A stretch of 64,000 nucleotides of DNA from an uncultured virus (IMG/VR IMGVR_UViG_3300030329_003290) (taxonomy: Duplodnaviria > Heunggongvirae > Uroviricota > Caudoviricetes), in the IMG/VR virus record IMGVR_UViG_3300030329_003290. One strand, 5' to 3'. A program made the translations under genes and the position numbers. The notes beneath the pieces are model-generated. The model saw only the letters and a list, made by a program, of their open reading frames with translations, searched no databases and had not been told where the DNA came from. Of this stretch, positions 12,437 to 61,550 are shown piece by piece (positions within the stretch are counted from its first letter, which is position 1; every line of letters starts with the position of its first letter).

Positions 12437-15400
12437 TTATGGGTCGAATGTAACTTCTACATTGAAACAAATATCTTTGATTGTTGCTGATGAGTTTGTA
12501 GAGCCACCCCCATTTTGCATAGTTACAACACCATTCAATCGGTCTCCAGCACTAAATGTATAAGTTCCGTAATCCCAAGTTGTAGCACCACTGTGATTAT
12601 TGGTATCATCTGTTGTAGTAGTAGTACTTACCGCTACTGAAGAACCATTTATATAAACTTTTGGTTTTACTGAAGTATCTGCTCCACTAGCACCAGCTGT
12701 AGTTTGTGAGACTATATCAAAAATCCAACCTATTCCTGTAACCGAACCAGCTCTAGTCATTATAATACCTTTATTACTGTCAAATGTTACAGAGTCCGGA
12801 CCAACTAAGTAAGTTGCTGTTTCGGCAGTACCAGCAGCACTTTCTAAACTTGCATCACGAGCAAACACAAAGTTTGAACTTCTTGGTCCAACTGGTGCTC
12901 CAGCATAATGAAATCCATCTGAAGCAGTAACCGATATATGGTTTGTATTAAATCTTATCAAGGTATCAGTATCGCCACTATGTATAATATCATTTCCAAC
13001 TTGTAAGTAAGCCATTGAGCCTGTTTTTGTAACTGAGAGATCTTGCATTGTTGAAAGGTCTCCATTTACCTGTACTTGTCTTAACGGACCCGAAACACTA
13101 CCTACCCATACATTACTTTCTATGACTGTGTTGTAATCAAGTGAGTTGTGAAGTGTAACTGCACCTCCACCTCTACCAGTATGTAGTCCAATAAATGGAG
13201 CAGCACTACCATCAGAATTTTCTGCAGCACCACCATCCAAGCCTTCACATATAGTAACAGAACCACTTAGTGCTGGGTTTAACCTTATAAATTCATAACT
13301 ATTTCCTATGGTATGAGCATCTGGTGCGCCACTACTATCATGATAGTTAATAAGTTCAAGTCCCCTTTGTCGGCCTTGAGGCATATGCCCGTATCTAATA
13401 ATACCCTGATCATCAGATATGTAGTCGAGTCCCATAGCTATTTGCATATCCGTTCCATCAGCACCAAATCGATTTGAAGCACCTTCAATAATCATTTGAT
13501 TATATGTTGTCTGTCCACGAAGAACTATTCCGCCTGATGCAGAAACAGCGTTGGTGTTACCCAATTCCAATCCGCCCATTTTAGCACCTTGCAAAGTAAT
13601 TTCACCCATCTGCGCTATTCGAGTACTTCCACTTGTAAATGTTATATCACCACTTAACTCCAGATCAGTTGCATTAACATCACCATTTAAAGCAACTCCA
13701 AAATTTGGTGTGGTTATTTGTATTGAACTACCTGAGATTTTAGCAGAAGATGCTGATATTGCACCAGCAGTATTTATTTGAAATGGTGCTTCATGACTAA
13801 CTACATTACCGACCGAAACCCTAACTGCCGCGTTGCCATCACGACCACCATCGGTTTCACTTCTTGCATCTAATTTTATTATACGATTAGCATCTAGTCC
13901 TAAACCCGCACCCATAACTATCTGTCCACTAGAACCTGAAACTATAAAGTTAGCAGTAGATGATTGTAATTTTCTGTCTGCAATATTGAAACCACCTACT
14001 GAACCCTCCACTGCATCAATTTTTCTAACCGTTATATCCCCATCAGGTGCTATATGAAACTTAGATGAACTTATTTCTATATTACCAGCAGCACCACTTA
14101 CAAATTGATTAGCACCACCTAAATAGAAAGTAGATGCGCTCATTACTAAATTAGTTCCATCAAATTGAACACGATTACCTGTTGAAGTTCCAATCAAAGC
14201 CCTTGACGCAGTAATAGACCCACTTATTTCCATTACTTTATTTTTAGTATCCAAATGAAATGCGCTTGAACTAATTTCTATATTGTTATTTGAACCACTT
14301 ACAAAATTTTGATTCAAATCACCAAGTAAAAATGTTGGAGCTTCTAATTTTATTTGAGAACCAGATAGAAATGCCACTTCACTCATTAATCCAAAACCAG
14401 TAAAATCGGCTGGTACATTTCTTGTACCCGCAACTCCACTCAAATCACCAACACGAGTTTTTAGTTCAACATCATATGGTTTTGAACCTGTTCTTTCTAC
14501 AATATCTATATATGGTGTTGCCTGATTATTTGGATTAGCATTTAATCTGATATATCCAGTACCAATTTTTCCTGTTGACGCAAATACTTGTCCAGGATGA
14601 TAAGAAGTTGATGCGCCACCAGTATCTCCTACCGAACCACTGTCTGTACCAGCACCAAATGAACTAGCAATAGATCTTGTAACATATATTCTACCGTAAA
14701 CATCTCCAGCACCTGAGTCTCCATCTAAAGAAGCACTATCTACTTGCATATATTCTGTTGTAAATCCTGTATCAGTAACTTTTTTAGCTATTAATATTTC
14801 ACCACTCTCAAATCCTGAAGCGTTAGCAACACTCATTGTCGTATCTGTTTTACTAGCAGTAAGTGAACCTGAAAGTGTTGTTGAATTTGCTACAAATAAT
14901 TGACCACCCACAGCATTTACAGATTCTTTTTCAAAGGTAGTTGTAGCCATCGTACCTCTTACTCTTATATTTTCAAATTCAGCATATCCATTTTCTTCAG
15001 CTGAAATAATAAATCCTGCTATATCGCTCTGATAATCTGATGACTTTACAGTACCAGCTTTATTCAATACTAAATTGCCACCAGTTATTGTAGAATCTCC
15101 AAGTGCCCATCCACCAATAGTACCACCGACAAAGTTTACATTTGAACCAGTTACATCTCCACCAGCCCTAACATTGAATTTAGAAGATGATATAAAATAT
15201 CCGCTCGTATCTGTAACAGAAGAACTAATAAAAAATGTATTTCCAGCAGTAAATGCATCATCTGATAATTCAAAAGCAGCTATTTTACCACCCGTAAATT
15301 TTACATTAGAACCCGTTATTTGTCCTGAAGCAGACATAACAAGACTCTTATTACTACTGTGTATTGCTACATCATTTACAGTAAATCCAGCTATAGACGC

Positions 15401-18010
15401 TGAAACAAATTTTGCAAATCCCGTTGAATTTATACTCGCACTAGCATTAGCTAATGTTGATGGGCTACCACCAATTGTAGCAGGTGTTTGTATATTATCA
15501 ACCGATAAATTACCCTGAACTGTAAGTTGTCCCGCATCAAATTGTAAATATTGTCCACCACTCTTGTCACCTAATAGAATAGCACTAGCAGTTACATCCC
15601 CCTCTGGTGTTATGTGCATTCCTGACGAACTTATTTCAATAGCACCACCAGAACCACTTATGAATTGTGTTGTAGTTTTACCCACAAAGAATGAATCTGC
15701 CTGTACATCAAATACACTTGGATTAGTTCTAAACTTTAATGAACCACTTTGTCCAATTAATTCTAAACCAACTCCAGCATAATTGTCACCACTATCTGGC
15801 AAAACCGAACCACTATAAATCATAAATCCATATGTTCCACCAAGAGAAGCATTAGAAGCTGATTTGAATCCTAAGTAACCAACCGACCTCATAAATCCTG
15901 AACCTTTAGCTCCTGATGCGCCTGTTTCAGGAAGTGTGGAAGATACACCACCAAAGTGCATTCCACTAGCAGTTGTATCTCCACCTATAAATAAATCACC
16001 ACTCATATTGTTATCATCACCTGTAATAACCATATTAGCACCTGTAAATAATGAACCACTATTGAAAGCAATAGAATCTGCTATGTTATTATTAGGATCA
16101 TAAAATTCAACCATAAACTCAAATGTTTCTGGACGCTTGTGTTGATATTCTGCTGGCATTTCCTTATCGAATTCAAAGAAAGATGGTGAAAATCCAGTAT
16201 CAACGGATGGTGTTATAGAAATATCTGATATAAACCAATTACCATCAATGACTCTAAATTGTAATATACCATCACCAGTTACATCTGCTGTAAATTCGTG
16301 AGTGACAAGTTTAAAATCTACTTCACTATCATCGACATCTTTTATTTCTAATTCACCAAGTCTCTTTCCATAAGCAGCTGTTTCTGTTATTGGGTTTTCT
16401 GTATGTTCATCTATCAATGGTACTGGTTGTTGATACATCGAAGAGCCAGATATATAAGGTACTAATAATGCTCTATTAGAAGTTCCCTTTTTACCATAAG
16501 CCACAAATGATAATGTATAATCTAAACCAGCAGTCAAATTAAACTTATAAGCATCTTTCAACTCAAACCTAAGTTGATTTTCAAATGTACTTAAACTTCC
16601 AGATAAATTTACTGCATCTAATACTGTATCGTTGTCGAAGTTCATAACTTCAGTTGAACTGACAGATAATCCATTAGTACTACCAAATTTTTGCCAATAG
16701 GTATTTATATCGGATTGATTTTCGAAGTATCCACTCCTTTCCCCTCTACCAACAGAGTTAGTATCTATCAATAATTCTGATGATTCTACAGGTACTTCTG
16801 ATAAAACTTTGAAGTCATCAAATGAGCCTTCAGGTCTAACATAAACTTTTGCCTTAAAAACATCACCTGAAAATGTTCTCATCTGAGATAACTTTACTTC
16901 AGCATAAGACATAATATTAGTAAGTGAATAAGAAGCAGTTATCTCTGGCATAAATACTGTTTGTGCTGTACCAAAGAAAGGTAAAACTATTTCTTCTCCA
17001 TCAGCATTAGTTTGTGTATATGGTTTTGTAACAAATGCTGTTTTACTATTTCCAATATCTTCTATTGAACTTGTATTGACAGATGAAAGTGTTGGTGGAA
17101 ATGTTAGTTTTAATTCTTGAAATTGTTCTTCATTATACTTAGTCGTATCAATAGACTTTAATATTATATCACCATCAATTTGCTTTGTAGTAAAATTATG
17201 GTCGGTACCAGGTATTCTATAACTGTATGGGAATTCTTCTGGTGAACTTCTTTTAGCTATATGTCCAGCTCTTTTGAATATACTAAATCTTCTTTTACCT
17301 TTTTTGTTCTTAAAAGACTTTTTCATTCTGTTGAATTTGCCAGTTTTATTTTTAGACTGAACAATCTTCGTAGAAGTTTCTGCTAAAGCACCTTGTTTCG
17401 GTTCTTCTGTACTAAAGGGGTTAAAACTAAATCCGTCTTGTGGTATACCCTCAACAGTAAATGTGGAACTACTGATTGAAGCAGTCGAATCAGTTCTAAC
17501 CATCGTTCCAAGTCTTCTTTCAGTAACACTAATTTTTGGTTGTGTGTAAAATCTAATTGGTTGTGTGTTGATGGCTACTGGATTTATTATAACTTCACGA
17601 GTCAATCTCACATTATATGCACCTTGAAATTCTGCTGGTACTGGTTCAGTATCAGAAAATAAACCAGGACCTGTAGGTACTTCATCTAACTCACCAACTA
17701 TAATAATATTAGCAGGACCAGGTGCGGTATCACTATAAACCTCTACTGATATTCTTCTTGAAGTACCCTCTAAATAATCAGCTACGGGTTCTGTGTATAT
17801 TGAATTACCCTCACTATCGACAAAATCTATAAGTAAGTCTATGCCCTCTTTCATATATGGACCTGTCTCTATAAGGAAAGAACTTTTTCCTTGTGGCAGA
17901 CTTTCTGGCATATCTGAAATAACGATATGTGTCGATTGATTTAAATCATCAATCAATACATCTAGTTCATCTAAGTCTTTTAGTGGATTATATCTCTTTA
18001 CGACACTCAT
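12437..18010 (-). CDS. Large virion structural protein, tail fibre/baseplate-attached
   Basis: 1857 aa, Gly/Ser/Thr-rich, repeated FxSGSxGxIEISSSxxH and GGxIGG/IAGF beta-strand units. Confidence 0.7.
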   Translation of the reverse strand: MSVVKRYNPLKDLDELDVLIDDLNQSTHIVISDMPESLPQGKSSFLIETGPYMKEGIDLLIDFVDSEGNSIYTEPVADYLEGTSRRISVEVYSDTAPGPANIIIVGELDEVPTGPGLFSDTEPVPAEFQGAYNVRLTREVIINPVAINTQPIRFYTQPKISVTERRLGTMVRTDSTASISSSTFTVEGIPQDGFSFNPFSTEEPKQGALAETSTKIVQSKNKTGKFNRMKKSFKNKKGKRRFSIFKRAGHIAKRSSPEEFPYSYRIPGTDHNFTTKQIDGDIILKSIDTTKYNEEQFQELKLTFPPTLSSVNTSSIEDIGNSKTAFVTKPYTQTNADGEEIVLPFFGTAQTVFMPEITASYSLTNIMSYAEVKLSQMRTFSGDVFKAKVYVRPEGSFDDFKVLSEVPVESSELLIDTNSVGRGERSGYFENQSDINTYWQKFGSTNGLSVSSTEVMNFDNDTVLDAVNLSGSLSTFENQLRFELKDAYKFNLTAGLDYTLSFVAYGKKGTSNRALLVPYISGSSMYQQPVPLIDEHTENPITETAAYGKRLGELEIKDVDDSEVDFKLVTHEFTADVTGDGILQFRVIDGNWFISDISITPSVDTGFSPSFFEFDKEMPAEYQHKRPETFEFMVEFYDPNNNIADSIAFNSGSLFTGANMVITGDDNNMSGDLFIGGDTTASGMHFGGVSSTLPETGASGAKGSGFMRSVGYLGFKSASNASLGGTYGFMIYSGSVLPDSGDNYAGVGLELIGQSGSLKFRTNPSVFDVQADSFFVGKTTTQFISGSGGAIEISSSGMHITPEGDVTASAILLGDKSGGQYLQFDAGQLTVQGNLSVDNIQTPATIGGSPSTLANASASINSTGFAKFVSASIAGFTVNDVAIHSSNKSLVMSASGQITGSNVKFTGGKIAAFELSDDAFTAGNTFFISSSVTDTSGYFISSSKFNVRAGGDVTGSNVNFVGGTIGGWALGDSTITGGNLVLNKAGTVKSSDYQSDIAGFIISAEENGYAEFENIRVRGTMATTTFEKESVNAVGGQLFVANSTTLSGSLTASKTDTTMSVANASGFESGEILIAKKVTDTGFTTEYMQVDSASLDGDSGAGDVYGRIYVTRSIASSFGAGTDSGSVGDTGGASTSYHPGQVFASTGKIGTGYIRLNANPNNQATPYIDIVERTGSKPYDVELKTRVGDLSGVAGTRNVPADFTGFGLMSEVAFLSGSQIKLEAPTFLLGDLNQNFVSGSNNNIEISSSAFHLDTKNKVMEISGSITASRALIGTSTGNRVQFDGTNLVMSASTFYLGGANQFVSGAAGNIEISSSKFHIAPDGDITVRKIDAVEGSVGGFNIADRKLQSSTANFIVSGSSGQIVMGAGLGLDANRIIKLDARSETDGGRDGNAAVRVSVGNVVSHEAPFQINTAGAISASSAKISGSSIQITTPNFGVALNGDVNATDLELSGDITFTSGSTRIAQMGEITLQGAKMGGLELGNTNAVSASGGIVLRGQTTYNQMIIEGASNRFGADGTDMQIAMGLDYISDDQGIIRYGHMPQGRQRGLELINYHDSSGAPDAHTIGNSYEFIRLNPALSGSVTICEGLDGGAAENSDGSAAPFIGLHTGRGGGAVTLHNSLDYNTVIESNVWVGSVSGPLRQVQVNGDLSTMQDLSVTKTGSMAYLQVGNDIIHSGDTDTLIRFNTNHISVTASDGFHYAGAPVGPRSSNFVFARDASLESAAGTAETATYLVGPDSVTFDSNKGIIMTRAGSVTGIGWIFDIVSQTTAGASGADTSVKPKVYINGSSVAVSTTTTTDDTNNHSGATTWDYGTYTFSAGDRLNGVVTMQNGGGSTNSSATIKDICFNVEVTFDP

Positions 18011-28842: not shown

Positions 28843-31800
28843 TTATTTTTTTCCTCCGAAATCGAATTTGAAAGAACTCTTCTTTTTCTTAAACTTCTTT
28901 CCACCTTTCTTTTTCTTCTTTAATTTTTTTGATTTTGTAGCATCTGGATCTCCATCACTCTTTCCAGCAAATTTATTTATCAATGTTTGTTCAGTTCTCA
29001 ATAAATTTTTGAAATCTAAATCAAATGATATTGGTGCTGGTCTTCCATCTGCTCCTATTCCAAATTTACTTATTCCCTTTTTTCTTTTCTTTTTCTTACC
29101 TTTAAATTTGAACTTAGATTGTTTACCATCTCCAGTTTTCAATGTAGACTCCCCATCTTTATCAGTTACAAGTTTAGTTGGTGATGTAATTGTAATCTCT
29201 ACTGGACGACCACCATCAATAGTAGTTCGTGGTGTATTTTTTACGCCAGAATAAAAAGACCTAAATTTAGCTAAGTCATGATCTACTAAGTTGTCCAAAT
29301 CAACATTATAAAATGATGATGAGTTCGGTAAACCCAAAGAGTGACTAAGTACAGTTGTATAAAATTTCATTTGTTTTTGGTTTCTACCATAAATACGAGA
29401 CCCAGTTACCATTGGTTGTTGAAGTTCTTTGTACTTTATATCACCTTGTGTTACCGAAGCAGATACATAAAGACCAGGTTGTGTGAGTACTTGCCACAAA
29501 GACTTATCAAAGTTTCTATCTTTCTGTTCTGATATAGTTCCATCATATGTATCATATGAACCTGTAACAACTATATTTGAACCTGATTCGTGTGTATTAG
29601 ATATTCTAATTGTATCACTATAATGATCTGTAGTAGTAACAGCAACTCCCGCATTATATGATCCTGTTATTTCAATGTAATCTGTACTGACATCAATAGT
29701 TGTTCTATAATTATCCTGTGATACCTCAGGTTCTCTACCTACAATAACTTTTGGTCTTTCAAATATATTTGGTTCTACCAATAAGCCAATATCAGCTTTT
29801 GCTCTAGCAGGTACCAATTTTCTTAATTGTGGATATAATGATTGATCATAATATCTCAATAATCTAATATAATCCCAAAAATTATTCGGTTCGGTATACT
29901 TTTGCCAGTATGTATTAGATGTAGCCCTCAATCCTCTATAACTCAACTTTTCTCTGTCTCTAGGGTCTCCTAAATAATTTTCAAAATTCAAATCACCAAC
30001 GGATTGTATTATATCATTATTAATTACATCTGTAGGAGCAAAATAAATTCCCACTTTATTGGAATCATTAGCTGCTGTATCATATTGACTTACAGTTGCT
30101 CTTTTTGTTCTTTGTAATATTTCACCAGGTTTTATTGAGTTATCTTCAATCCTTATCTTTTTCGTAGTTCTTCTCAAAGCACCAATACTTGGAATATGAG
30201 ATTTTAACTCATCAACTACATTACTAAAAAAGTTTCCTGTAAATCCATTATGAGATCCAGATACTGTTGTCGTCTGATTTGAACTGACATCACGAATACC
30301 ATCTGTATCTGAACTTAAATCTTTATTGTCATTGAAAGAATATCTTAATACTAAATTATCATAAGATGAAGATAAATTATTTCCATTGTATGCTTGTGGA
30401 TTAGCGATATGATTTTTGAATGGTTTTACACCTAATGTTTCTGTCCATTGTCTATATTCCATCATTGAACCAGTAAGTCGAGAACCAACTAATGCATTAT
30501 TAGCACTACCACCAATAAAAATATCACCATCGTTTGCGTATGATAAATTATATGATGATGAAGCAGCTATATCAGTAGACATTGTTACAGCAGAAAATAA
30601 ATGTATCTTACTTCTACTAGCATCATACTTACCTACAGATAATTGGAATGATTGTGACACAACACCTGTATCTGAACCAGATGTTCTTCTCAACATAACA
30701 GAATAAAAATCTCCGTCATAAACTGGAAATGCGGAAGAGCTGATTTCTTTTAGACCATTTGAACCACTCAATTGAAAAGCAACAGTACCATAATCATCAG
30801 CTGATCCATTATCTTTTAGTCTGATATAAAAACTAGAAGATACATTAGGTGATTTTGCCTTTTTCTCAACCAATATCTGATTGGAACTACTTACTGCTCT
30901 AAATCTAAACTCAATAGTATCTGGCTTTCTCCCACTACCAGTATCATCTACCCAAGGCATCGTCACATACTGAGAACCTTTGAAATCTAAAGCCTTTGTA
31001 AATTTTCTTGTTATCTCAAACTGTGGTGCTTCATCATCTTTTATTTTAGGACCACCATATTCTTTGACTCTCAAAATTGTAGATGGAATACCATAAACAT
31101 TTATCAAACCTTTTAGAGCTTTTATTGTACCTTTATTCTTTAGAAAGAATGGCATATTGTTTATGATACGACTCCAAATTTCTCTTGTTAAATCTTTTTG
31201 TGATGTTGCTGAAAATGTAGACACCGAAGAACCTGTAACTTCATTTCCTGAATGGTATCTTGGTAAACTTACTAAATCAGAACTATCATTTAGCCTCCAA
31301 CCCAAAGATTGACCTACAGCATACAATACATCTTTCGACATTCCCTCTGATAAACTTTCTCTTCTATCATAAACATCACCTAAAGCCTTTACATAAACCC
31401 AAATATTATCAAAGTGGTGTCCTATCATATCCGTAAATGCTAGATAAGTATCATTTGAAGTATCATCTATTAGATGTTGTGGCAGTAAACTACTTAGTTT
31501 ATTTAAATTTTCATCATCAAATAACGAAGCAGATATAATGTTATTTTCATACCAAGTAGTGGCTACCGATGAAGTAGTATGTGCTAACACATAAGGATTT
31601 GTTACAGTCCCACCACCGCTTGTTTTAGGCCATGCATTACTATAGAATTGTCCCAAAGAACTTGATTCTGCTGAAGAGCTTTCGAAGTACATATATTTTT
31701 CAAAATGATCAAATTGATTTTTAACTTCATTGATTCTCAAATCCCAAACATTTTTGTCACCTGTAGAACCAGATACATTTGATAAAGAAGAACTTGAAGC

Positions 31801-34800
31801 AGTATAACTTTCTATCAACTCCAATTTATATTTAAAATTTTCTATTCTTTTTTCTACCGAACTAAAGTTTGCAACATTTTCCCAATTACGATAATTTATA
31901 TTTAATTCAGCACTAGCTTCACTAGCAGATATTATTTTATTTTTTAATTCTTTTGATACTATAGCATCCGATGTAACAATAGAATTTTCAGTTTTGAAAT
32001 CAGTAGTTCGTCTTTGTACAGGACTTTCCACATTACTCATATCAGGACTTTTTAGTACTCTGTCCCCCATTTCATTATCTACAAAATCAACTATTCTTAC
32101 TCTTTCTGTTATAGGCGTAACCATTTCCTTTACTACTGTAAGTTCATCGAATCTTTGTATATTTCCAGGTAATGGTTCGTATAATTTATAAACTATTGAG
32201 TGAGGCCATTTAGTAACAGCAGCTCTATCTTGTCTAAAATTAGTTGTTAGAAAGAATTGATTTCCAAATTTTAAGTATGTCCTTAGTTCTCTAGGATTGA
32301 AAATTGTATATGAAACATCAAATCCAGTATAAGAACCAGCAGCAGTTCCTTCTTGATAAAAAGCAGTTGCTGGATTATCATCATCTCCAACTTCTATAGC
32401 ACCATCTGCAAAAGTCTTATTTAGTGTTACTTGTGTACCATCATCACTAACAGATTGTATTTGTGCAACAAAGGGTTTTTTTATTTCTTGTTGTGTTGTT
32501 TCATTTACTAATTCAAATCTTACATCTACAGCATCTACCCAACTAACTCCAAATGTATTCGTATCAGTAAAATCATGACCTTCAAAAACGACCTGCCAAC
32601 CAGGTGCTTCCAATCTCCAATCATCTCTAACTGGAATTATTACTTCAGCACTCTCCCACTCATTTGCCACACTTGTTCTATATATTGGAGCATTAGTTCC
32701 ACCTGGTCTGACATATGTATATCTTGGTGGAACAGGTCCTGTGAATTTCCAATAATAAACTGAAGATTGATCATCTGGTTCTGACCAAACCCAAAATTCT
32801 TCTGGACTTAAAGTACCTACTTTATCAGGAGTATCTCCTACTATTTCTATTCCCGAACCATCGTCATAATCTGGAACTCTAGGTAATGGATTACCATCAG
32901 CATCCTGCATCCAATTTTCTGTTCCAGGATTTCTAGTACCAAATATAAAATCTTCACCACCAGTATCAAACTCACCAGCACCAAAAAAGTGTTCGGTAAT
33001 TGTATCCCACGGTTTATGTTCATCATCGCCAGGATATCTTTTTCTTAATCTTTTGCCAATAAGTTGAACATAACCACTATAATCTCCTGTCTTATGACTT
33101 GGGTCTTCTTCAATAACCACATCACAAGGCATTTCAAATTGTTTAAACCCATCATCATTAATTATTCTTGGATAATCACTTTCAATCCATTGGTTGTCAT
33201 CATCTAATTCATATAAATCACCATTACCATCATCAACTCTATAATATTCATTTCCTGTAAATGCGTAGTACCTTACTTCTTGAGTATCATTTTTTCTTCT
33301 ACCAGCCCATTTTACCATACCACCATTATCATTGATTTTTTCATTGAAAGGTGCATCTAAGTCAGCTATTTTGAAAACTCCTTCGATGGGTGGAAATGCA
33401 GTAGAATCTCCTGGATTATATGTATCTACTCTGAATGATTTATTACTGTCTGTATTCCCCATACCATCATTATAAAATACATGGTATGATCCAAACTGAA
33501 ATCTTCTTAGTCCAGTATCACGAAATCTAGCACAAGTTATATCTTGTATATAACCATATTGAAATATGTCTTCATATAAACTTATAGTTGTGATATTACC
33601 ATCACCATCTACTCTTTCAATTTCTGTAGCTCTTAGTTGTGGAAAAAGTTTATCCCAATCGTAACAATAATATGTCCCATGTGATATAGTTGCTTCATTA
33701 TATTTGACAAGCCATACTTGGTCTTGTTTACCCAATAAAATCCACTTTCGAAAATCTAAAGTATTATCGACACTACCAAATCCATTTCCTGCAAGCCAAT
33801 TTACCCATCCTGAAGAAGCTGCAGCACCATATTCAAAATTAGTATCACTTGGTGCATTTCTTGGAAAAAGTGGTCTTCTTGTTTGTATGTTCTGATTCTG
33901 TATAGCATAATTATGAGCATTTACAGCATTAGGAAAATCATTCGGATGAACAGTTGTATACTCTACACCATTTACTGTTTGAACTATAGGTGTAGGTGTA
34001 CTTGGTTCAGGATAAGTAACCCATTGTTGTCCATTCCACTGCCAGTTACCACCCTCACTCAATTCGCCAGCAGAATCTTGAAAATTAGAATTGCCTGTAT
34101 TTACAGCCCATTCAAATATTGGATTTGAACCACCACTAGAACTAACAGCAACCCACACACCAGTACCACCAAGTGCTGCAGTATTGTCCCCTACTCCAAA
34201 ATCAAAAACAGGTTCTTCAAGATTGAAAAAATTTATTATAGTAGACCACTTTTGTGGCGGCTGTGCTTCTATCAACTGTGCATTAGCAACTGTTGGCGGA
34301 TAATAATCATCAGGTGGATTTATCGGTGACTCTTCGTCACCAAATGCTCCTGTTATTGGATTAAAAAATCCATCAGGAGATTCAGTAGGTTGTGGTTCTT
34401 GATCTAAAAAATTAGCGTATTTTAAACTTACTTTTATTGGTTTATTTGGAACACTTGATTTTACTTGAAACGAAACAACAACATTGTCTTGATGACCAAC
34501 ACCCAATGAATTTAATGCATGAGGTATGTGTTGTGCTATCAATAATGATCTATGTGGATTCTCCAATGGCCATTGAGTATACTCTTCAGCAAATGACTGA
34601 TTTATATCAGGAAATTTCATACAATTTCCACCATCTATACCCTCACCTTGTACAATATGCGCCCAATAACCTAAGTGTGTAGAGTTTTTCCAAGTATCGT
34701 TATTTTCAAACCAATGTAAATATCCAGTACTCCAACCTGTTGCCCTTACTGCATTTGCGTGTAAATTTTCATCCCACGGAAATTTATCTCCTAGTTTTAT

Positions 34801-35700
34801 AACTTCGCTGTATGTATCTTTTTCTAAATCCGCTAATTCAGAATTTACAATAATATTAGCTTCTGTTCTTGGTATGGTAGTAATAGTATCAACCAAATAA
34901 ACATTATTGACATAAACAGTTCCACCAACCATTCGTGGTGTAAATAAAAAGTTAAATATTTGCTGTGTACCACTTGGTGGAGGACCTGATGATCCAGCAC
35001 TATATCCTGGAGGAGGACCAGAACTTTCTTGTATTTCAGGAATAATTGTCATAACATTTGTATCTGTCTCAAAATTATCTATATCATTTAGAGTCCCAAA
35101 AGTTATTCCTATATTCGGATGCGCTGTTCTCCTTACACTTTCGCCAAGTCTAGCAAAGTTTTCAAGATACTTATTACCAGTTATACTTTTTGTTTTTAGT
35201 CTAACCTCACTTCTACTGGGCGAAATAGCATCTACTTGTAATGTCAAATTATCAAGTTGTAATGCCTGTCCTCTCTCACCATTAGGACCAGAAGCATAAA
35301 TTTCACCATTATCTAATATTTCAATGGCATTTGTATCTTCCCATATAGTAAAATATCCTTGGTCATTTTGTTGAGTTGTTGTTAGTAAGGTAGTTTCATC
35401 ACCAGCTAACTGTCTGTAAAATTGGTAATTGACTTGATAAGCACCAGTTTGAATATCTTCAGCAACCAATTCCTTTACTGGTTTTAATAATAACTTACCC
35501 TCATCATCAATCTCAATTTCAGAAAAAGGTATCTTTTTGAAATTTAGTGTACCACCAGTAAGACTTTTCAGTTCAAAGTATATATAATCTCTTTCTGGTC
35601 TAGTACCAAATAAACCATTTTCGTATGGCTTATTACCAATATTAATCTTAGTGCCAGATGTTAGTAAATTTTTATCTGTTGTGTTTAGTTTACTTGCCAT
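28843..35700 (-). CDS. Large baseplate wedge-like protein with LamG-like region
   Basis: 2285 aa; FFLKNKGT..LINVYGIP..LRVKEYG wedge-type motif; TIEFRF...GSMMEYRQW LamG-like; follows gp6-like gene. Confidence 0.7.
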   Translation of the reverse strand: MASKLNTTDKNLLTSGTKINIGNKPYENGLFGTRPERDYIYFELKSLTGGTLNFKKIPFSEIEIDDEGKLLLKPVKELVAEDIQTGAYQVNYQFYRQLAGDETTLLTTTQQNDQGYFTIWEDTNAIEILDNGEIYASGPNGERGQALQLDNLTLQVDAISPSRSEVRLKTKSITGNKYLENFARLGESVRRTAHPNIGITFGTLNDIDNFETDTNVMTIIPEIQESSGPPPGYSAGSSGPPPSGTQQIFNFLFTPRMVGGTVYVNNVYLVDTITTIPRTEANIIVNSELADLEKDTYSEVIKLGDKFPWDENLHANAVRATGWSTGYLHWFENNDTWKNSTHLGYWAHIVQGEGIDGGNCMKFPDINQSFAEEYTQWPLENPHRSLLIAQHIPHALNSLGVGHQDNVVVSFQVKSSVPNKPIKVSLKYANFLDQEPQPTESPDGFFNPITGAFGDEESPINPPDDYYPPTVANAQLIEAQPPQKWSTIINFFNLEEPVFDFGVGDNTAALGGTGVWVAVSSSGGSNPIFEWAVNTGNSNFQDSAGELSEGGNWQWNGQQWVTYPEPSTPTPIVQTVNGVEYTTVHPNDFPNAVNAHNYAIQNQNIQTRRPLFPRNAPSDTNFEYGAAASSGWVNWLAGNGFGSVDNTLDFRKWILLGKQDQVWLVKYNEATISHGTYYCYDWDKLFPQLRATEIERVDGDGNITTISLYEDIFQYGYIQDITCARFRDTGLRRFQFGSYHVFYNDGMGNTDSNKSFRVDTYNPGDSTAFPPIEGVFKIADLDAPFNEKINDNGGMVKWAGRRKNDTQEVRYYAFTGNEYYRVDDGNGDLYELDDDNQWIESDYPRIINDDGFKQFEMPCDVVIEEDPSHKTGDYSGYVQLIGKRLRKRYPGDDEHKPWDTITEHFFGAGEFDTGGEDFIFGTRNPGTENWMQDADGNPLPRVPDYDDGSGIEIVGDTPDKVGTLSPEEFWVWSEPDDQSSVYYWKFTGPVPPRYTYVRPGGTNAPIYRTSVANEWESAEVIIPVRDDWRLEAPGWQVVFEGHDFTDTNTFGVSWVDAVDVRFELVNETTQQEIKKPFVAQIQSVSDDGTQVTLNKTFADGAIEVGDDDNPATAFYQEGTAAGSYTGFDVSYTIFNPRELRTYLKFGNQFFLTTNFRQDRAAVTKWPHSIVYKLYEPLPGNIQRFDELTVVKEMVTPITERVRIVDFVDNEMGDRVLKSPDMSNVESPVQRRTTDFKTENSIVTSDAIVSKELKNKIISASEASAELNINYRNWENVANFSSVEKRIENFKYKLELIESYTASSSSLSNVSGSTGDKNVWDLRINEVKNQFDHFEKYMYFESSSAESSSLGQFYSNAWPKTSGGGTVTNPYVLAHTTSSVATTWYENNIISASLFDDENLNKLSSLLPQHLIDDTSNDTYLAFTDMIGHHFDNIWVYVKALGDVYDRRESLSEGMSKDVLYAVGQSLGWRLNDSSDLVSLPRYHSGNEVTGSSVSTFSATSQKDLTREIWSRIINNMPFFLKNKGTIKALKGLINVYGIPSTILRVKEYGGPKIKDDEAPQFEITRKFTKALDFKGSQYVTMPWVDDTGSGRKPDTIEFRFRAVSSSNQILVEKKAKSPNVSSSFYIRLKDNGSADDYGTVAFQLSGSNGLKEISSSAFPVYDGDFYSVMLRRTSGSDTGVVSQSFQLSVGKYDASRSKIHLFSAVTMSTDIAASSSYNLSYANDGDIFIGGSANNALVGSRLTGSMMEYRQWTETLGVKPFKNHIANPQAYNGNNLSSSYDNLVLRYSFNDNKDLSSDTDGIRDVSSNQTTTVSGSHNGFTGNFFSNVVDELKSHIPSIGALRRTTKKIRIEDNSIKPGEILQRTKRATVSQYDTAANDSNKVGIYFAPTDVINNDIIQSVGDLNFENYLGDPRDREKLSYRGLRATSNTYWQKYTEPNNFWDYIRLLRYYDQSLYPQLRKLVPARAKADIGLLVEPNIFERPKVIVGREPEVSQDNYRTTIDVSTDYIEITGSYNAGVAVTTTDHYSDTIRISNTHESGSNIVVTGSYDTYDGTISEQKDRNFDKSLWQVLTQPGLYVSASVTQGDIKYKELQQPMVTGSRIYGRNQKQMKFYTTVLSHSLGLPNSSSFYNVDLDNLVDHDLAKFRSFYSGVKNTPRTTIDGGRPVEITITSPTKLVTDKDGESTLKTGDGKQSKFKFKGKKKKRKKGISKFGIGADGRPAPISFDLDFKNLLRTEQTLINKFAGKSDGDPDATKSKKLKKKKKGGKKFKKKKSSFKFDFGGKK

Positions 35701-46945: not shown

Positions 46946-47388
46946 GGTTTAAGTTTACCCTCTAAGCGTAATTTATCATATACTGCGTCTACATACTCTT
47001 TTGATTCTTTTAGAGACTTATCCAATCCATAAACTATTGGCGCATTTCTTCTGTAGTGTTTTATCGCATTTATTTTTTGAGGACCTTGTGGGTTTAATAA
47101 AAATTGTTCTATTTCTTTCTCCAATATAACAGGTGGTACTTTAGAAGGATCTTCTCCATTATATATCATTCTTCTTATTTTCCATATAGTGTTAGCCTGT
47201 AACATCACATCACGCAATTCACGATATGACATATTGGTATAATCCTCTTTTACTTTTGATAATAAGCTGTAAGCATCTGTAGTGTGTTTTGTAAATAATT
47301 CTTCGTCACTTGGTTTATCAGGTTCAGTAGCTCTAGATAACTTTACTAACCTTTCAAGCTTTTCTACCATCCAATCTTTTTTGCTCAT
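46942..47388 (-). CDS. Protein with C-terminal ribosomal bL12 (L7/L12) CTD-like motif
   Basis: KINAIKHYR...SLKESKEYVD compared with bL12 KIxVIKxVR..GLKEAKxLV. Confidence 0.6.
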   Translation of the reverse strand: MSKKDWMVEKLERLVKLSRATEPDKPSDEELFTKHTTDAYSLLSKVKEDYTNMSYRELRDVMLQANTIWKIRRMIYNGEDPSKVPPVILEKEIEQFLLNPQGPQKINAIKHYRRNAPIVYGLDKSLKESKEYVDAVYDKLRLEGKLKP

Positions 47389-48578
47389 CTACCAACTTCT
47401 CCTAAGTATTGTTTTTTAGTTTCTTCCCAACTCTTACCTACAATATCACCATAGAATAATTTTTCTGGCTTTAGTCTACCCTCATCAAATAACTTACTAT
47501 ATCTTTTGATAGCTTTTGGTTTCCACCACTTCATAATATAATCTGAATCTTCAACATACTTTTGTTTCATCTTCAACTCTGATTCTTCAATCTCACCTCT
47601 GAGAAATTCCTTACCATTCTCGTACATATCAGCAAAGTATATACCTCTTTTGAATCCGTGTTGATATTCAGATGCTTTTACTCCGACAACTTTGAATATC
47701 ATATTTATTGTCTTTTGTTTCACACCAGTTGGAGGACCAGCAACACCTTCTTTTTGTGTAGTAGCCGCTTTGTATTCTTCTTCCCTATTTTCTTTCAACC
47801 ATTGGTGCCATATATCATAAGTTTCATCATCTGGCTTTAGCGCGATTCTACCTTTTGAGCTTCCCATTGTTCTCCATAGTGGTATGGAGTTATACATAGA
47901 GTGAATTCCATATAGCGATGTTGTCGATAATCCCACAAGTGTCTGTCCATACAATTTCTTCCAAGCGTCTCTTACAACCGATGAGGTGACTAAAGCGGCT
48001 ACTAACTTACCCCCTAAAAAATTAAAACCTAATGGTTGAGCACAACAAATAGTAGTTCCAATAGATGTATATTTTAGCTTACCATCTTTGAACTTATTAT
48101 CCTTTGTCCAACCAATAAATTTATCTCTAGCTCCTAATGAAGTTACATCAGAGCCTAAACATATTATACCTAAAATCTTTTTACTAACTTTATCTTTTAC
48201 ATAAAACTTTATATTTCTGCCAGGATTAGCAGTAAACTCCATAGTGTGAATCAACCTACGAACCAATGTCCACTCTTCATTATGTTTAGCATTACCTTGT
48301 TCTGTCATCTCAACATAAGGTTCTAAGGCTTCTATCTCTTTGATAGTTTGTTCTTTATTATTTATATCTTTTGGTGTCCAAATAGACTTTTCTATTTTAG
48401 AAAATTGAGTGGCTTTTTGTGTCATAGAATAAACATCGGCATTGAACTCTAGCCACTTCTTATATAATGTTTGTTCTTGTACTGACATAGATTTGAGAAA
48501 ATCTAAGTTGTCGATAAACTTCTTGCGTTCAGCATCGAAGTCAAATTGCGGTTCGTCAAAAAAGTCGTTAAAACCCAT
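47385..48578 (-). CDS. DUF4338 / DruA-like domain protein
   Basis: PGRNIKFYV, ARDKFIGW, QPLGFNFLGGKL, TTSLYG..YN. Confidence 0.7.
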   Translation of the reverse strand: MGFNDFFDEPQFDFDAERKKFIDNLDFLKSMSVQEQTLYKKWLEFNADVYSMTQKATQFSKIEKSIWTPKDINNKEQTIKEIEALEPYVEMTEQGNAKHNEEWTLVRRLIHTMEFTANPGRNIKFYVKDKVSKKILGIICLGSDVTSLGARDKFIGWTKDNKFKDGKLKYTSIGTTICCAQPLGFNFLGGKLVAALVTSSVVRDAWKKLYGQTLVGLSTTSLYGIHSMYNSIPLWRTMGSSKGRIALKPDDETYDIWHQWLKENREEEYKAATTQKEGVAGPPTGVKQKTINMIFKVVGVKASEYQHGFKRGIYFADMYENGKEFLRGEIEESELKMKQKYVEDSDYIMKWWKPKAIKRYSKLFDEGRLKPEKLFYGDIVGKSWEETKKQYLGEVGR

Positions 48579-50467: not shown

Positions 50468-50481
50468 TTGATTCTCCTTAG

Positions 50482-50905
50482 TGGAGCTGGGGGGATTCGA
50501 ACCCCCGTCCAGTCTACTTTTTCCAATGAGTCATTCACAACTTAGTCAGGTTCCTACTAATACTATACGAAGTCACCTGCAACCCAATAACAACTTTGTT
50601 CAGAGTTGCCAACTGGCAGTTTCTTTAATCACTAACTTCCCTCTAGCTAAAGTGAGTTTGTCTAACTTATTTTATGACCGAGTGTTAGACAACTCAGTAA
50701 CTTATGCAGCGTATGCGTAAGTTGGTTGGTAATCACCGATTGGTAAATCAACTGAGTAATCATACTCAGCTAAATGCCAATCTATCACCAACCCTTCGAG
50801 CGAATTATCGCCATTTGAGATTGTGAGTCTTTTATGTCAAGTAGTACTCAAACTCAGTTGCACTCAATTGTCAAATAGCACCTGTCGATTTCCATAGACA
50901 GCCCC
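50482..50905 (-). ncRNA. ssrA: tmRNA
   Basis: 5' GGGGCTG...TCGAC, 3' GGACGGGGGTTCGAATCCCCCCAGCTCCA, G3:U70, internal frame ending YAYAA-stop. Confidence 0.95.
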
Positions 50906-56281: not shown

Positions 56282-56915
56282 TATTTTCTCCATTTATAGT
56301 AATTTTATGTACAAAGATATTTTTAGATGGGCAATAATTCCAACTATCTTGATGTTGGTGTTCTACGACAATATCATCTGTTTCTGAGTGCGCCCATTCT
56401 ATATCTTCATATCCTGATTTCCAAGCTTGCATATTATCCCATATACAAAATCTAGTTCCTCCTTGTTGCCACTTTACATAAACTCTTTTACCCTCAACTA
56501 CTGTTTGTACGGGCTTTGATAATTTAAGAACTACTTCTTTTTTGAAATATTCTATGTTCATATCATCAAAAGTATCAAATAATATTCCATCATATTTACC
56601 AAAGTTATCAATATTTTTATACCAATCACCCTTTACTATTTTTACATTAGGTTTATCACTAGCCCACTCTTCTAATCTCTGAATAACTTCAGGATCTATT
56701 TCACATATTGTATGGCTGGTAGGATTATATTGCTGTATAAAGTTTGATGCTATACCCATACCAAATCCAATTTCTAAAATGTCATTTCTCTCTGCCCATC
56801 CACCAGAACATACAAATCTAGCCATTCTTTCCATAACTGGTGTTTCCCAATTATGCATAACTACTTTCTTACCTTTCAGTATAGAATTTTCTGTAAATGT
56901 GTATGGTGTAGCCAT
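56271..56915 (-). CDS. Class I SAM methyltransferase, GAMT/RMT2-like
   Basis: VMHNWETPVM, LEIGFGMGI, HTICE, YDGILFDTF. Confidence 0.8.
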   Translation of the reverse strand: MATPYTFTENSILKGKKVVMHNWETPVMERMARFVCSGGWAERNDILEIGFGMGIASNFIQQYNPTSHTICEIDPEVIQRLEEWASDKPNVKIVKGDWYKNIDNFGKYDGILFDTFDDMNIEYFKKEVVLKLSKPVQTVVEGKRVYVKWQQGGTRFCIWDNMQAWKSGYEDIEWAHSETDDIVVEHQHQDSWNYCPSKNIFVHKITINGENNAN

Positions 56916-57556
56916 TACTTACTACTATAACTTACTAATTGACTAGAAAGTAATCCTTGTATTGTATAATACAATGATGGGTTTCTTTTCAATAATTCTT
57001 TGAATTCAGGTTGTTTCCAAACCAAGCATTCAGTATTGTGTTTTACAACACAAGTTGCTGTTGCTGGTTTCTCTGTAAGGAATGACATCTCCCCTACAAA
57101 CTGACCATCTTTTAGTTCAGCTACCTTTTTACCATCTACTGCCACATCAACAGTTCCATTATATATCAATATTAAATCTAATACTGGTGTACCTTGTCGT
57201 ATAATCTTTTCACCACTTTCATATTTTTCCCATCTGGCAACTTTACTAATTTTTAGATACTCAACAGGACTCAAATCTTTGAATAGAGTTTCATACAACT
57301 CTTTGTCTTTTGGTGCCATTTTGATTGGTCGTTTTTCATATATGATAACTGCTATGTGATAGAGGTTGAGAGTAATAAATACAAAATTCCAATTGATAGC
57401 CAACCACATTGGTTCAACTGGTATGGTGTAGTTATAAAATACTGAAAATAAACTAGCAAGTATGGATACTACTCGTAACCACAAAATGTCTTTTACTAAA
57501 AAAGAAAATGCTATTAAACCAAATGCTAAATGACCAGCTATAGTTGCGATATCCAT
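56915..57556 (-). CDS. Popeye-like membrane protein with cyclic-nucleotide-binding domain
   Basis: Three TM segments (SFLVKDILWLR, WNFVFITLN), ELYETLF, IIRQG..LIYNGTV..GQFVGEMSF..ATAT. Confidence 0.85.
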   Translation of the reverse strand: MDIATIAGHLAFGLIAFSFLVKDILWLRVVSILASLFSVFYNYTIPVEPMWLAINWNFVFITLNLYHIAVIIYEKRPIKMAPKDKELYETLFKDLSPVEYLKISKVARWEKYESGEKIIRQGTPVLDLILIYNGTVDVAVDGKKVAELKDGQFVGEMSFLTEKPATATCVVKHNTECLVWKQPEFKELLKRNPSLYYTIQGLLSSQLVSYSSK

Positions 57557-59653: not shown

Positions 59654-60426
59654 TATTTATTCCATTCGAATGTTTTGTATGATTGCGTGGTTGTCTTTGT
59701 CTTATATGGTATAAGTATATTAGAAACTACTTTTTCACTATCATCATTTTGTTTCATTCCTATTGCTAAACTTGTATTACATTCATTTGGAAATTTTGTT
59801 TTCCAATTATTTGGCAATTCCCCACAAGGTTGTACATTTAGTTTTAGTCCCTCATCCAATCTCTGTGATACTGCTCTATAAGGTCCTTCCAATACATTCA
59901 GAGAAGATTTCCAAAGTGGTTTATAATTTGGAAAGTAATCGTGAAATAATATGTATCCATTATCAGCTAATAAATCATAAGCTAAAGGTAATTCCTCATA
60001 TACTTTTTCATAACTATGATCTCCATCTAAAAATATAAAATCATATTTAGACTTTGGTAGATAATGTGATTCATTCTTTAAAAATTCTACAGAATCGCTG
60101 ACAACAAAATCAACGAAAGACTCACAACCTATTTCGTGTATCAAATCTCTTGGACAAGGAGAGTCTGTATTTACATCAGCAATATCAACAGTAGTAATTT
60201 TAGCACCATCTCTATCTTTCATAGCTAAAGCAATACTTACTAACGAGCCACCTATATGAGTTCCAATTTCTAAAACATTCCTAACATCTAAGTTTTTTAT
60301 TAGATGATATATTGCCCTTTGGTCTCCTGGATTTACACCACCAGTATATTCAGGAATGCTAAGTGGTACTTTACTAACTTTGTCCCAGTTGGTATCTTTT
60401 TCCCAAATCTTTTTTAGGTCTAACAT
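59653..60426 (-). CDS. Class I SAM methyltransferase (Methyltransf_24-like)
   Basis: VLEIGTHIGGS, TTVD, YDFIFLDGDHSY, ILFHD. Confidence 0.85.
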   Translation of the reverse strand: MLDLKKIWEKDTNWDKVSKVPLSIPEYTGGVNPGDQRAIYHLIKNLDVRNVLEIGTHIGGSLVSIALAMKDRDGAKITTVDIADVNTDSPCPRDLIHEIGCESFVDFVVSDSVEFLKNESHYLPKSKYDFIFLDGDHSYEKVYEELPLAYDLLADNGYILFHDYFPNYKPLWKSSLNVLEGPYRAVSQRLDEGLKLNVQPCGELPNNWKTKFPNECNTSLAIGMKQNDDSEKVVSNILIPYKTKTTTQSYKTFEWNK

Positions 60427-60550
60427 ATATTTCCCCATAACAATCTAAGCATAATTGTCCAGCACCATCTACATATCCAAAGCGAACAAGTATATGTTCA
60501 TCTTTATCGTGGTGTGAATCTTTTCTACATACAACACACTTATCTTTCAC
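60374..60550 (-). CDS. 58-aa zinc-finger protein
   Basis: Manual translation (GTG) MKDKCVVC...RFGYVDGAGQLCLDCY... Confidence 0.6.
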   Translation of the reverse strand: MKDKCVVCRKDSHHDKDEHILVRFGYVDGAGQLCLDCYGEIYVRPKKDLGKRYQLGQS

Positions 60551-60698
60551 TTACAACTTCTTTTATCTTACCAAGATGTCCACCTACTTTCTGAACATAT
60601 AGTTCAGCGTCTTGTTTATCTTTAGCTAGAAATGTGAACCCCTCATCAGTTGTCCACCTTTTGTAGTCAACCCATTGACCTACTTTTTTCTTTGGCAT
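60540..60698 (-). CDS. 52-aa hypothetical protein
   Basis: MPKKKVGQWVDYKRWTTDEGFTFLAKDKQDAELY...; GAGG RBS. Confidence 0.6.
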   Translation of the reverse strand: MPKKKVGQWVDYKRWTTDEGFTFLAKDKQDAELYVQKVGGHLGKIKEVVSER

Positions 60699-60708
60699 AT
60701 ATAACCTC

Positions 60709-60942
60709 TTATGTTACCGATTCATAATATTCAATTAAATCTTCAATTTCATTTTCATTTGGGAATCTACCCAATTCTTTTTTACTAAACAGTAAGCTAT
60801 TATTAAAAGATACTTCAAACACACCACCAGTACCTTGTATCAATTCAGCAGTTACACCGTATTGTTTTTCTATTGATTCTCTCAAACTGAGAGCTTTATC
60901 TAAATAGCCTCACTGTGTGCAATATTCAATTTTGACTTCCAT
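60709..60942 (-). CDS. SelW/SelT/SelH (Rdx family) selenoprotein, 77 aa, Sec at codon 11
   Basis: MEVKIEYCTQ-U(TGA 60912-60910)-GYLDKALSLRESIEKQYGVTAELIQGTGGVFEVSFNNSLLFSKKELGRFPNENEIEDLIEYYESVT; AGAGGA RBS. Confidence 0.92.
60871..60906 (-). promoter_or_regulatory. Bacterial-type SECIS element
   Basis: TATT(TA)GAT(AAAG)CTCTCA-GTT-TGAGAG(A)ATC-AATA; loop G is the 23rd nt after UGA. Confidence 0.8.
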
Positions 60943-61067
60943 ATGTTTCCTCTAATACATTTCATAAATCTTTTCAAAACTTTATTATAGATATATGTTT
61001 TTCCGTGATTTCTAAATATCATTAGAAGAGCCTGACTCCGCAAAACAGATTCTTCTCGTTCACTCAT
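60900..61067 (-). CDS. 55-aa hypothetical protein overlapping the selenoprotein 5' end
   Basis: MSEREESVLRSQALLMIFRNHGK...HSEAI; AGGGG RBS-like sequence. Confidence 0.45.
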   Translation of the reverse strand: MSEREESVLRSQALLMIFRNHGKTYIYNKVLKRFMKCIRGNIWKSKLNIAHSEAI

Positions 61068-61163
61068 CGCTTTCCCCTAAAATTTATTTTGGGTGCCCCA
61101 ACCCTTCGTTTCAATTCTAGTAGCGATTCCTTAATATCTTGTTCAGTTATTTCTATCTCTATA

Positions 61164-61550
61164 TCAGGAACTAAACACCTTCTTTTTTTCTCCGTGGTAT
61201 TCGTAGGCATGACCATTTTCCTTTAGTAACTCATTGACAGATTTCTCGTGCCCTTTTACAAATATCTCTCCAAGTACTCGACCATACTTTCCTCTTCCGT
61301 GAGATATTATTGAAAACTTTCCCTCATCAGTATTTTCTAAGAGGTCTTTTACATAAGCCTTAGCTTCTAAACCTTTGGCTTTTTCTTCTAAATCTCGTGT
61401 TCTACTTTCCCAAGTATCTACACCATAAAATCTAATTCGTGATTTTACCCATACATCAAATCCTAAATCTATCATAGCATCACAAGTGTCACCATCGACA
61501 ACCCTTACTAATTTACAACTATAACCATGCTTCTTTACTTGCTTCCCCAT
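61164..61550 (-). CDS. Thermonuclease (SNase-like)
   Basis: RVVDGDT, RIRFYGVDTWES, GKYGRVLG, VNELL..GHA. Confidence 0.9.
   Translation of the reverse strand: MGKQVKKHGYSCKLVRVVDGDTCDAMIDLGFDVWVKSRIRFYGVDTWESRTRDLEEKAKGLEAKAYVKDLLENTDEGKFSIISHGRGKYGRVLGEIFVKGHEKSVNELLKENGHAYEYHGEKKKVFSS

Follow-up and report, generated by a model that had tools for sequence, protein, structure and literature searches.

A selW-like gene with an in-frame TGA is present on the minus strand

Near one end of the window, by which we mean the whole 64-kb stretch of DNA analysed here, lies a complete selW-like gene whose coding frame is interrupted by a TGA at codon 11. Its features, together with those of the shorter ORF that overlaps it, are as follows.

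60709..60942 (minus strand): complete selW-like gene of the Rdx family; 77 codons including the UGA at codon 11, then TAA; translated with TGA as U
60948..60953 (minus strand): Shine-Dalgarno-like AGAGGA, with a 5-nt spacer to the ATG; read directly from the sequence
60940-60942 (minus strand): ATG start codon; read directly from the sequence
60919..60921 (minus strand): Cys8 codon TGC, first residue of the CxxU redox motif; from sequence and translation
60910..60912 (minus strand): in-frame TGA, predicted selenocysteine codon 11; from homologue conservation and alignment to CxxC
60879..60893 (minus strand): SECIS-like hairpin CUCUCA-GUU-UGAGAG; from folding and covariation
60709..60885 (minus strand): 58-aa ORF with its TTG start (60885) inside the hairpin; from the ORF list, reported by ORF finders instead of the full gene
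60709-60711 (minus strand): TAA stop codon of selW; from the sequence

The segment upstream of the TGA encodes MEVKIEYCTQ, and the TGA is followed by 66 open codons up to the TAA, within which GGVFEV, LFSK and GRFP are all found. An earlier reading made from the letters alone (the sequence-only reading) had described the same ribosome binding site, the ATG, IEYC-T-Q-TGA, the 66 open codons with their three motifs and the hairpin CTCTCA-GTT-TGAGAG after the UGA, and we found each of them in its place. It had also pointed out that the gene was missed by the ORF track, and indeed selW is present in the ORF list for the window solely as the 58-aa form, 60709-60885.

In another frame, a 55-aa ORF (60900-61067, minus strand) overlaps selW over the initial 43 nt of the gene and thus also over its TGA. 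As homologues of this ORF are located downstream of selW in two related loci (L006 and L045), the ORF may be a genuine small gene that runs on at its end in the window.

The decoded product belongs to the Rdx/SelW family

With the TGA decoded, the 77-residue protein was compared with the PF10262 (Rdx) profile, as the sequence-only reading had suggested. The match is strong (E 9.1e-21, 74.3 bits, cut-off 22.6), extends over positions 1-73 of the 74 in the profile, and takes in all ten residues that precede the TGA. The NCBIfam model TIGR02174 was matched at 59.2 bits against a cut-off of 34.2. The top-scoring NCBIfam model was NF041051 (SelTWH_Campy, an equivalog), to which residues 3-70 aligned on profile positions 1-69 of 70; its 88 bits are equal to the curated cut-off of 88, and from so borderline a match neither a host nor an origin in the Campylobacterota can be deduced. 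Sequence matches in the PDB include MIEN1 (2ljk, 7.5e-10), Atu0228 (2fa8), bacterial SelW-related proteins and mouse SelW (2npb). In the alignments to the solved relatives 2ljk and 2fa8, Cys8 falls on the first Cys of CxxC and residue 11 on the second one. The TGA of the proposed CxxU motif is thus found at the redox Cys position, in agreement with the codons of the homologues described below.

An AlphaFold model built from 23 homologues (pLDDT 89.3) has a thioredoxin-like beta-alpha-beta-beta-beta-alpha fold, with strands predicted at residues 3-8, 33-37, 42-46 and 49-53, and helices at 14-28 and 63-76. It superimposes on four bacterial SelW-like crystal structures (2fa8, 2ojl, 2obk and 2oka) with TM 0.84-0.89 and rmsd 1.1-1.6 A, and so the assignment to Rdx/SelW made by the sequence-only reading is borne out by profiles, PDB alignments and model superposition alike. 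In the predicted model, C8-T-Q-U11 comes directly after strand beta1 (3-8). The 58-aa ORF is devoid of this strand, of the CxxU motif and of the first six residues of helix 14-28; since beta1 and the redox motif lie upstream of its start, this ORF, judged by the model, cannot be the functional unit.

A library of viral structures gave no match at E<=0.001 (best 8.5e-3, TM 0.59), and the sole matches there, all of them weak, were phage thioredoxins and glutaredoxins. Among 50,697 records of cultured phages, no DNA or tblastn match to selW was found with the 77-aa query, in a search that only strong matches could pass.

Codon 11 is almost invariably TGA and is flanked by constrained codons

Searching a large protein catalogue returned 195 matches, and the best 120 of them (P0002-P0121) were inspected. 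In 116 of these best 120 homologues, which are 77-78 aa long, residue 11 is W, this being the TGA as translated by table 4. Three of the remaining four are 58-aa stubs and one lies outside the motif pattern; 58-aa fragments in public catalogues are P0083, P0094 and P0111. Cys at residue 11 did not occur in any of the best 120. It needs to be mentioned that the public data on this family are systematically mistranslated, as gene callers took table 4 for short low-GC contigs. In practice, catalogues store selW either truncated or with Trp at its active site.

We thus turned to DNA, which was fetched for 83 related loci (9 from IMG/VR, 5 from species-representative genomes and 69 from metagenomes); 5 loci were excluded, their codon not being covered or their match being no real homologue. 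Codon 11 is visible in 79 sources, 78 of which (77 loci and the window) have TGA and one (L016) TGC; neither TAA nor TAG occurs among the 79. Some loci are pieces of one contig, and alignment A2, with its 50 distinct 66-nt sequences, gives the more cautious number. The sequence-only reading had proposed aligning homologues at codon 11 in search of Cys/Sec exchange, and such an exchange was seen once, in L016. It had also been ready to give way to reads with TGT or TGC at 60910-60912; no variant at these positions was found in the contigs of four public runs, some of them DNA runs from two further studies.

L016 (300-365) is the only Cys form among the 79 sources. It has a GTG start and two Leu-to-Phe changes in the 66-nt segment, and its hairpin contains a U-G wobble, which is a weakening and not a loss.

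Codons on both sides of the TGA are under coding constraint. The start codon stands exactly 7 codons before the Cys in 45 of the 46 distinct phage-clade sequences (ATG in 39, GTG in 6), and a purine-rich stretch is found ahead of this conserved start. At the three codon positions, nucleotide diversity amounts to 0.205/0.171/0.427 before the TGA and 0.237/0.101/0.359 after it, that is, an excess of third-position variation is seen in both segments. Synonymous switches among homologues include Ser4 TCT/AGT and Cys8 TGT/TGC.

The hairpin downstream of the UGA is maintained by compensatory changes

The hairpin begins 16 nt after the UGA and its loop G is base 26 when the U of the UGA is taken as base 1; this position and the loop G fit the general pattern of bacterial SECIS elements. 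In the window it consists of 6 bp and a GUU loop, with a folding energy of -8.8 kcal/mol (z -1.2), and 24 of 200 shuffled sequences fold equally well. The homologous stretch of L001 gave a z of -0.4, and hairpin energies range from -6.5 to -8.8 kcal/mol. As these energies are no better than those of shuffles, folding energy was dropped as evidence, and we therefore relied on covariation, which had been named in the sequence-only reading as a suitable check of the stem.

Across all 50 distinct sequences, 98% of the 300 cells are paired and 4 of the 6 pairs have changed on both sides. Compensatory cells number 44, compared with 8.4+-2.2 after shuffling (0 of 500 shuffles reach 44), and pairing falls to 21-56% when the 3' arm is slid by 1-3 columns. 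A similar picture was obtained for the 40 phage-clade sequences (alignment A3): all 240 cells (100%) are paired, 3 of the 6 pairs have changed on both sides, there are 20 compensatory cells versus 4.3+-1.6 in shuffled alignments (0 of 500 reach 20), and sliding the 3' arm by 1-3 columns leaves 14-63% paired.

Some of the paired changes are synonymous (CTC/TTG to CTT/TTA, GCT/AGA to GCC/AGG), others alter amino acids (Leu/Arg to Phe/Lys), and G-C to C-G flips, by which GC content is kept, occur in the GC-rich cellular homologues. On one hand, the synonymous and the Phe/Lys changes are C-G/U-A switches, which compositional drift alone could mimic. On the other hand, neither wobbles nor mismatches occur as intermediates at pair 33-39 (CG 35, UA 14, AU 1), and this, like the flips that keep GC content, speaks against drift. 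The loop reads GUU, GGU or GUC among homologues, with A34, G35 and U38 of the alignment invariant. As far as the alignments tell, the hairpin thus acts like a selected structure across homologues.

The suggestion that the gene carries its own SECIS is therefore sustained by covariation for the apical hairpin, whereas the "extendable lower stem" that accompanied it in the sequence-only reading is not conserved: this extension forms in the minimum-energy fold of the window, but only 56.5% of its cells are paired across the 50 homologues. At gathering thresholds, Rfam found no SECIS family in the window. The tool bSECISearch, proposed in the sequence-only reading, is named in PMC2398784.

The gene resides in a clade of large phages, and TGA is a normal stop codon in the window

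We selected 76 non-overlapping ORFs of at least 50 aa in the window (GC content about 33%), 72 of which are on the minus strand. PHROGs, applied to 63 proteins, identified portal, large terminase and baseplate wedge proteins, endolysin, primase and RusA, and further a tRNA nucleotidyltransferase, a peptide deformylase, Hsp20 and a CobS-like ATPase. Among 60 window ORFs scanned with Pfam, none was recognised as a cellular housekeeping gene or as SelA, SelB or SelD. Other genes are held in common with the window by 60 of the 83 related loci. A gene for an SNase-like nuclease (window 61164-61550) is present in 42 loci, always upstream of selW where listed, and usually directly so. Moreover, two IMG/VR records that carry selW, G002 (77.8 kb; 42% complete by CheckV) and G003 (95.9 kb; 52%), run collinear with the window, to which their DNA is 67-85% identical; they reach about 14 kb before the start of the window and about 70 kb past its end, which gives a composite of about 148 kb. 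The phage origin assumed in the sequence-only reading is well founded in view of the portal, terminase and baseplate genes, of the loci sharing genes and of the collinear records. These sequence comparisons also support the view that selW is carried by a widespread clade of large marine phages and not by one phage.

The 76 selected ORFs are ended by TGA in 17 cases, TAA in 43 and TAG in 16, TGA often being found in ATGA overlaps; ORF 6145-6456, the example put forward by the sequence-only reading, is among those ended by TGA. A scan of the coding strand for in-frame TGA yielded 9 raw candidates, of which selW alone is credible. The other in-frame TGA genes in the window and in G002 and G003 were rejected as spurious, being either short shadow ORFs or frames that extend across a tRNA or tmRNA gene (the largest other candidate in the window runs through a tRNA-Gly gene). 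Because TGA ends 17 of 76 ORFs and there is no other credible in-frame TGA gene, site-specific recoding of the UGA, and not an altered genetic code, is supported.

In a tree calculated on 77 columns, long-branched cellular sequences appear at two points inside the phage diversity. On this tree, 4 changes of the phage label are required, at least 2 of them being forced by the starred branches; no donor or direction was drawn from it. A distant selW with TGA (45% identity) is present on L072, a 51-kb metagenome contig, amid small unannotated ORFs and a DNA methylase gene, and L072 may represent a second, unrelated phage lineage carrying selW.

Several other features of these genomes were recorded. 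A one-piece tmRNA gene (window 50479-50905, minus strand; Rfam RF00023, 70.2 bits) is missed by ARAGORN, which does find the tmRNA of G003 and G002 (L088 14431-14840; L096 329-738), with a tag peptide ending in YAYAA. A 397-aa protein (47385-48578, minus strand) matches the Pfam family DruA (Druantia defence protein) at E 1.9e-26 and has a tRNA-Gly gene just upstream. Three giant ORFs on the minus strand encode 2285 aa (28843-35700), 1857 aa (12437-18010) and 1797 aa (6999-12392); the former two have no PHROG or Pfam match, and the third contains cytidylyltransferase-like and Zeta_toxin/AAA_33 kinase-like domains. The ORF at 56915-57556 (minus strand) encodes a POPDC-like domain (PF04831, 1.2e-13) followed by a cyclic-nucleotide-binding domain (PF00027, 1.1e-16).

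Selenocysteine machinery is found in cellular relatives and not in the phage DNA analysed

Our search for tRNA-Sec, selA, selB and selD gave nothing in the 64-kb window, just as the sequence-only reading had noted, or in the relatives G001-G006, including the composite of about 148 kb, these relatives being fragments that are at most 52% complete. A suppressor tRNA (UCA) was likewise absent from this composite and from G001 and G004-G006. Sub-threshold tRNA-Sec matches in the relatives were rejected, as they proved to be tRNA-Gly and tRNA-Cys. A tRNA-Cys(GCA) gene is present in G003 (L090 7418-7491) and absent from the window. The proposal that the phage relies on host SelA, SelB, SelD and tRNA-Sec fits these results: with no Sec machinery in the window or its collinear relatives, decoding would have to rely on the host.

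Distant homologues (39-56% identity) occur in cellular contexts, among genes for ribosomal protein S4, DnaK, DapF, SufBD and ABC-transporter binding proteins. One cellular selW-like gene, on L079 (2971-6020), shares the TGA and the hairpin and is followed directly by a SelD-like (AIRS) gene and selA. SelB scored over the curated cut-off in three of four MAGs whose selW homologue has TGA; the fourth (G009) contains split pieces. This co-occurrence draws largely on G008 and G010, two of the three SelB-positive MAGs, which are flagged as unpublished. Two of the 50 rows in alignment A2 come from the same two MAGs, as do two in the tree; alignment A3, being restricted to phages, is without them.

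By large terminase, the nearest cultured phages among the 50,697 records are Microcystis phage Mel-JY01 (55.5%) and Flavobacterium phage immuto (53.8%). SelB was over the cut-off in only 1 of 401 sampled Bacteroidota genomes, which makes a host from this phylum unlikely, provided that SelB is required. No host assignment was obtained from the terminase relatives or from the tmRNA tag.

A 1629-nt contig of the metatranscriptomic run X18 covers 60400-61209, with the TGA intact and one difference at 60458. It lends weak support to transcription of selW, as the library may contain DNA and contigs show neither strand nor translation.

A phage-borne selenoprotein is the most plausible explanation

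In our opinion, the most plausible explanation, to which we would assign a probability of about 80%, is that this is a genuine phage-borne selenoprotein gene, encoding a 77-residue SelW-like protein with Cys8-x-x-Sec11, equipped with a SECIS hairpin, decoded by means of host SelB and serving a redox role. In this scenario, the hairpin at 60879-60893, with G-U in its loop, would act as a bacterial-type SECIS when a ribosome arrives at the UGA at 60910-60912. The loop would bind host SelB carrying Sec-tRNA(Sec), and selenocysteine would be inserted at the UGA instead of termination, giving a thioredoxin-fold oxidoreductase with the Cys8-x-x-Sec11 motif. The phage would provide the mRNA signal only, and as no decoding machinery lies in the available phage DNA, its hosts would have to be Sec-decoding bacteria. 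What we infer here is that the residue is Sec rather than another one, that decoding depends on SelB and that the role is in redox chemistry. By analogy with phage thioredoxins and glutaredoxins, the protein is probably a small thiol/selenol oxidoreductase in the infected cell, and it may keep some thiol-dependent process running there or, as the sequence-only reading proposed, buffer redox stress during infection.

An alternative would be that the UGA is read through without selenium, by a near-cognate Trp or Cys tRNA at low efficiency and perhaps with the help of the hairpin, in which case the host need not decode Sec. Such a process would agree with the lack of Sec machinery in any phage DNA examined, with cultured relatives infecting phyla in which SelB is rare (Bacteroidota) or which were outside the survey (Cyanobacteria), and with the tRNA-Cys(GCA) of G003. 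We nevertheless find it improbable, as the codon occupies the redox Cys/Sec position of a family with known Sec forms and is TGA only, never TAG or TAA (78 of 79 sources), while a protein in need of Cys could simply use TGT or TGC, as L016 does. Moreover, the position of the hairpin and its loop G are the same in cellular homologues that lie beside selD and selA or co-occur with SelB, and no suppressor tRNA(UCA) was found in the available phage DNA. Termination at the UGA, with production of a 10-residue peptide and/or of a separately initiated 58-aa ORF (TTG 60885), is very improbable. It is true that the 58-aa form appears in the ORF list and in public catalogues; however, the 10 upstream codons, the start and the ribosome binding site are conserved with an excess of third-position variation, neither the Pfam profile nor the fold is complete without beta1 and the CxxU motif, and the TTG, itself part of the conserved hairpin, is replaced by TTA, which is no start codon, in 11 of the 40 phage-clade sequences.

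Scarcely credible to us, and the least probable of all, is a phage or host code of the table 4 type with TGA as a sense codon. This would account for W at residue 11 in 116 of the best 120 catalogue homologues and would be in line with the low GC content; yet 17 of the 76 ORFs stop at TGA, frequently within ATGA overlaps, table 11 leaves frames of 1797-2285 codons open, the further in-frame TGA candidates on the coding strand are all spurious, and Trp is implausible at the redox position of CxxC/U. Finally, the window might be a bacterial region or a mis-binned chimera, and its selW simply a gene of bacteria, where selenoproteins of the SelW-like type are common (PMC2398784). The tree, too, does not cleanly split phage and cellular sequences. 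Still, a cellular gene is highly unlikely here, since the 64 kb that contain it also encode, on the same strand, portal, terminase, baseplate and endolysin proteins, with no housekeeping gene seen, the place just downstream of the SNase-like nuclease gene is kept (nuclease in 42 loci), and the gene recurs in IMG/VR records of 78 and 96 kb collinear with the window.

Comparison with known selenoproteins

In E. coli fdhF, a SelB-bound stem-loop lies within the ORF soon after the UGA, and its apical loop contains a G followed by a U (G23/U24). The phage element has the same layout, an in-ORF stem-loop shortly after the UGA with a conserved loop G followed by U. In contrast to that of fdhF, however, the phage stem is much shorter and AU-rich, with 6 bp and a 3-nt loop, its G-U lies 3 nt further from the UGA, and SelB binding is predicted. 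Many phages carry thioredoxins and glutaredoxins, which are likewise small thioredoxin-fold redox proteins, but the Rdx subfamily and Sec are unrepresented in the viral structure library.

The prokaryotic SelW-like selenoproteins (CxxU; PF10262, TIGR02174) share family, motif, length, fold and the in-ORF hairpin after the UGA with the phage gene. In the GOS data, 427 Sec forms of SelW-like proteins were found versus 56 Cys forms (PMC2398784), and the phage set resembles them in that Sec forms far outnumber Cys forms. The surveys PMC2398784 and PMC9402790 treat the sequences as bacterial, whereas here the gene is in a phage clade; the words phage and virus are absent from PMC2398784, and PMC9402790 describes viral sequences as absent or very few outside RNR II, plastocyanin and Cu-Zn SOD.

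As to selenoproteins of viruses, the only ones named in the recoding review PMC8310308 are the glutathione peroxidases of molluscum contagiosum virus and fowlpox virus. These too are virus-carried genes dependent on the Sec machinery of the host, with the fowlpox SECIS located in the coding region (PMC8310308). They differ from the phage gene in belonging to eukaryotic viruses and to another protein family, and in being decoded through a eukaryotic SECIS and SBP2. A tRNA-SeC gene has been reported, as a first, in Basilisk-like Bacillus phages (PMC6145125). This is also a link between phages and Sec, but what that paper describes is a tRNA without a selenoprotein gene, whereas here we have a selenoprotein gene without tRNA-Sec in the DNA seen. 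Phage, virus and viral are nowhere mentioned in a 2022 review (PMC9312934) or in the 2026 BSepDB paper (PMC13326102). Our full-text literature search, which covered few subscription-journal papers, found no report of a bacteriophage selenoprotein, so that the remark of the sequence-only reading that these are rarely described is, if anything, understated. Both the protein family and this way of recoding are familiar; what seems not to have been reported is that a widespread phage clade carries such a gene.

Significance of a phage-borne selW

On balance, we lean towards the view that these genes constitute the first family of bacteriophage selenoproteins: large marine phages of a widespread clade would bring selW and its SECIS into the cell and leave the decoding to host SelB. 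Viral selenoproteins known so far are limited to a few animal viruses. If the gene is decoded as predicted, phages would exploit the selenocysteine machinery of their hosts by means of an mRNA signal alone, and infection would draw on the selenium supply of the host. SelW-like genes, which have been counted as the most abundant bacterial selenoproteins of marine metagenomes, would then be partly viral, and thus a real share of the ocean's "most abundant selenoprotein family" would belong to viruses and not to bacteria. The gene would also mark its hosts as Sec-decoding bacteria, and its presence might therefore serve as a simple predictor of host range for abundant uncultured marine phages.
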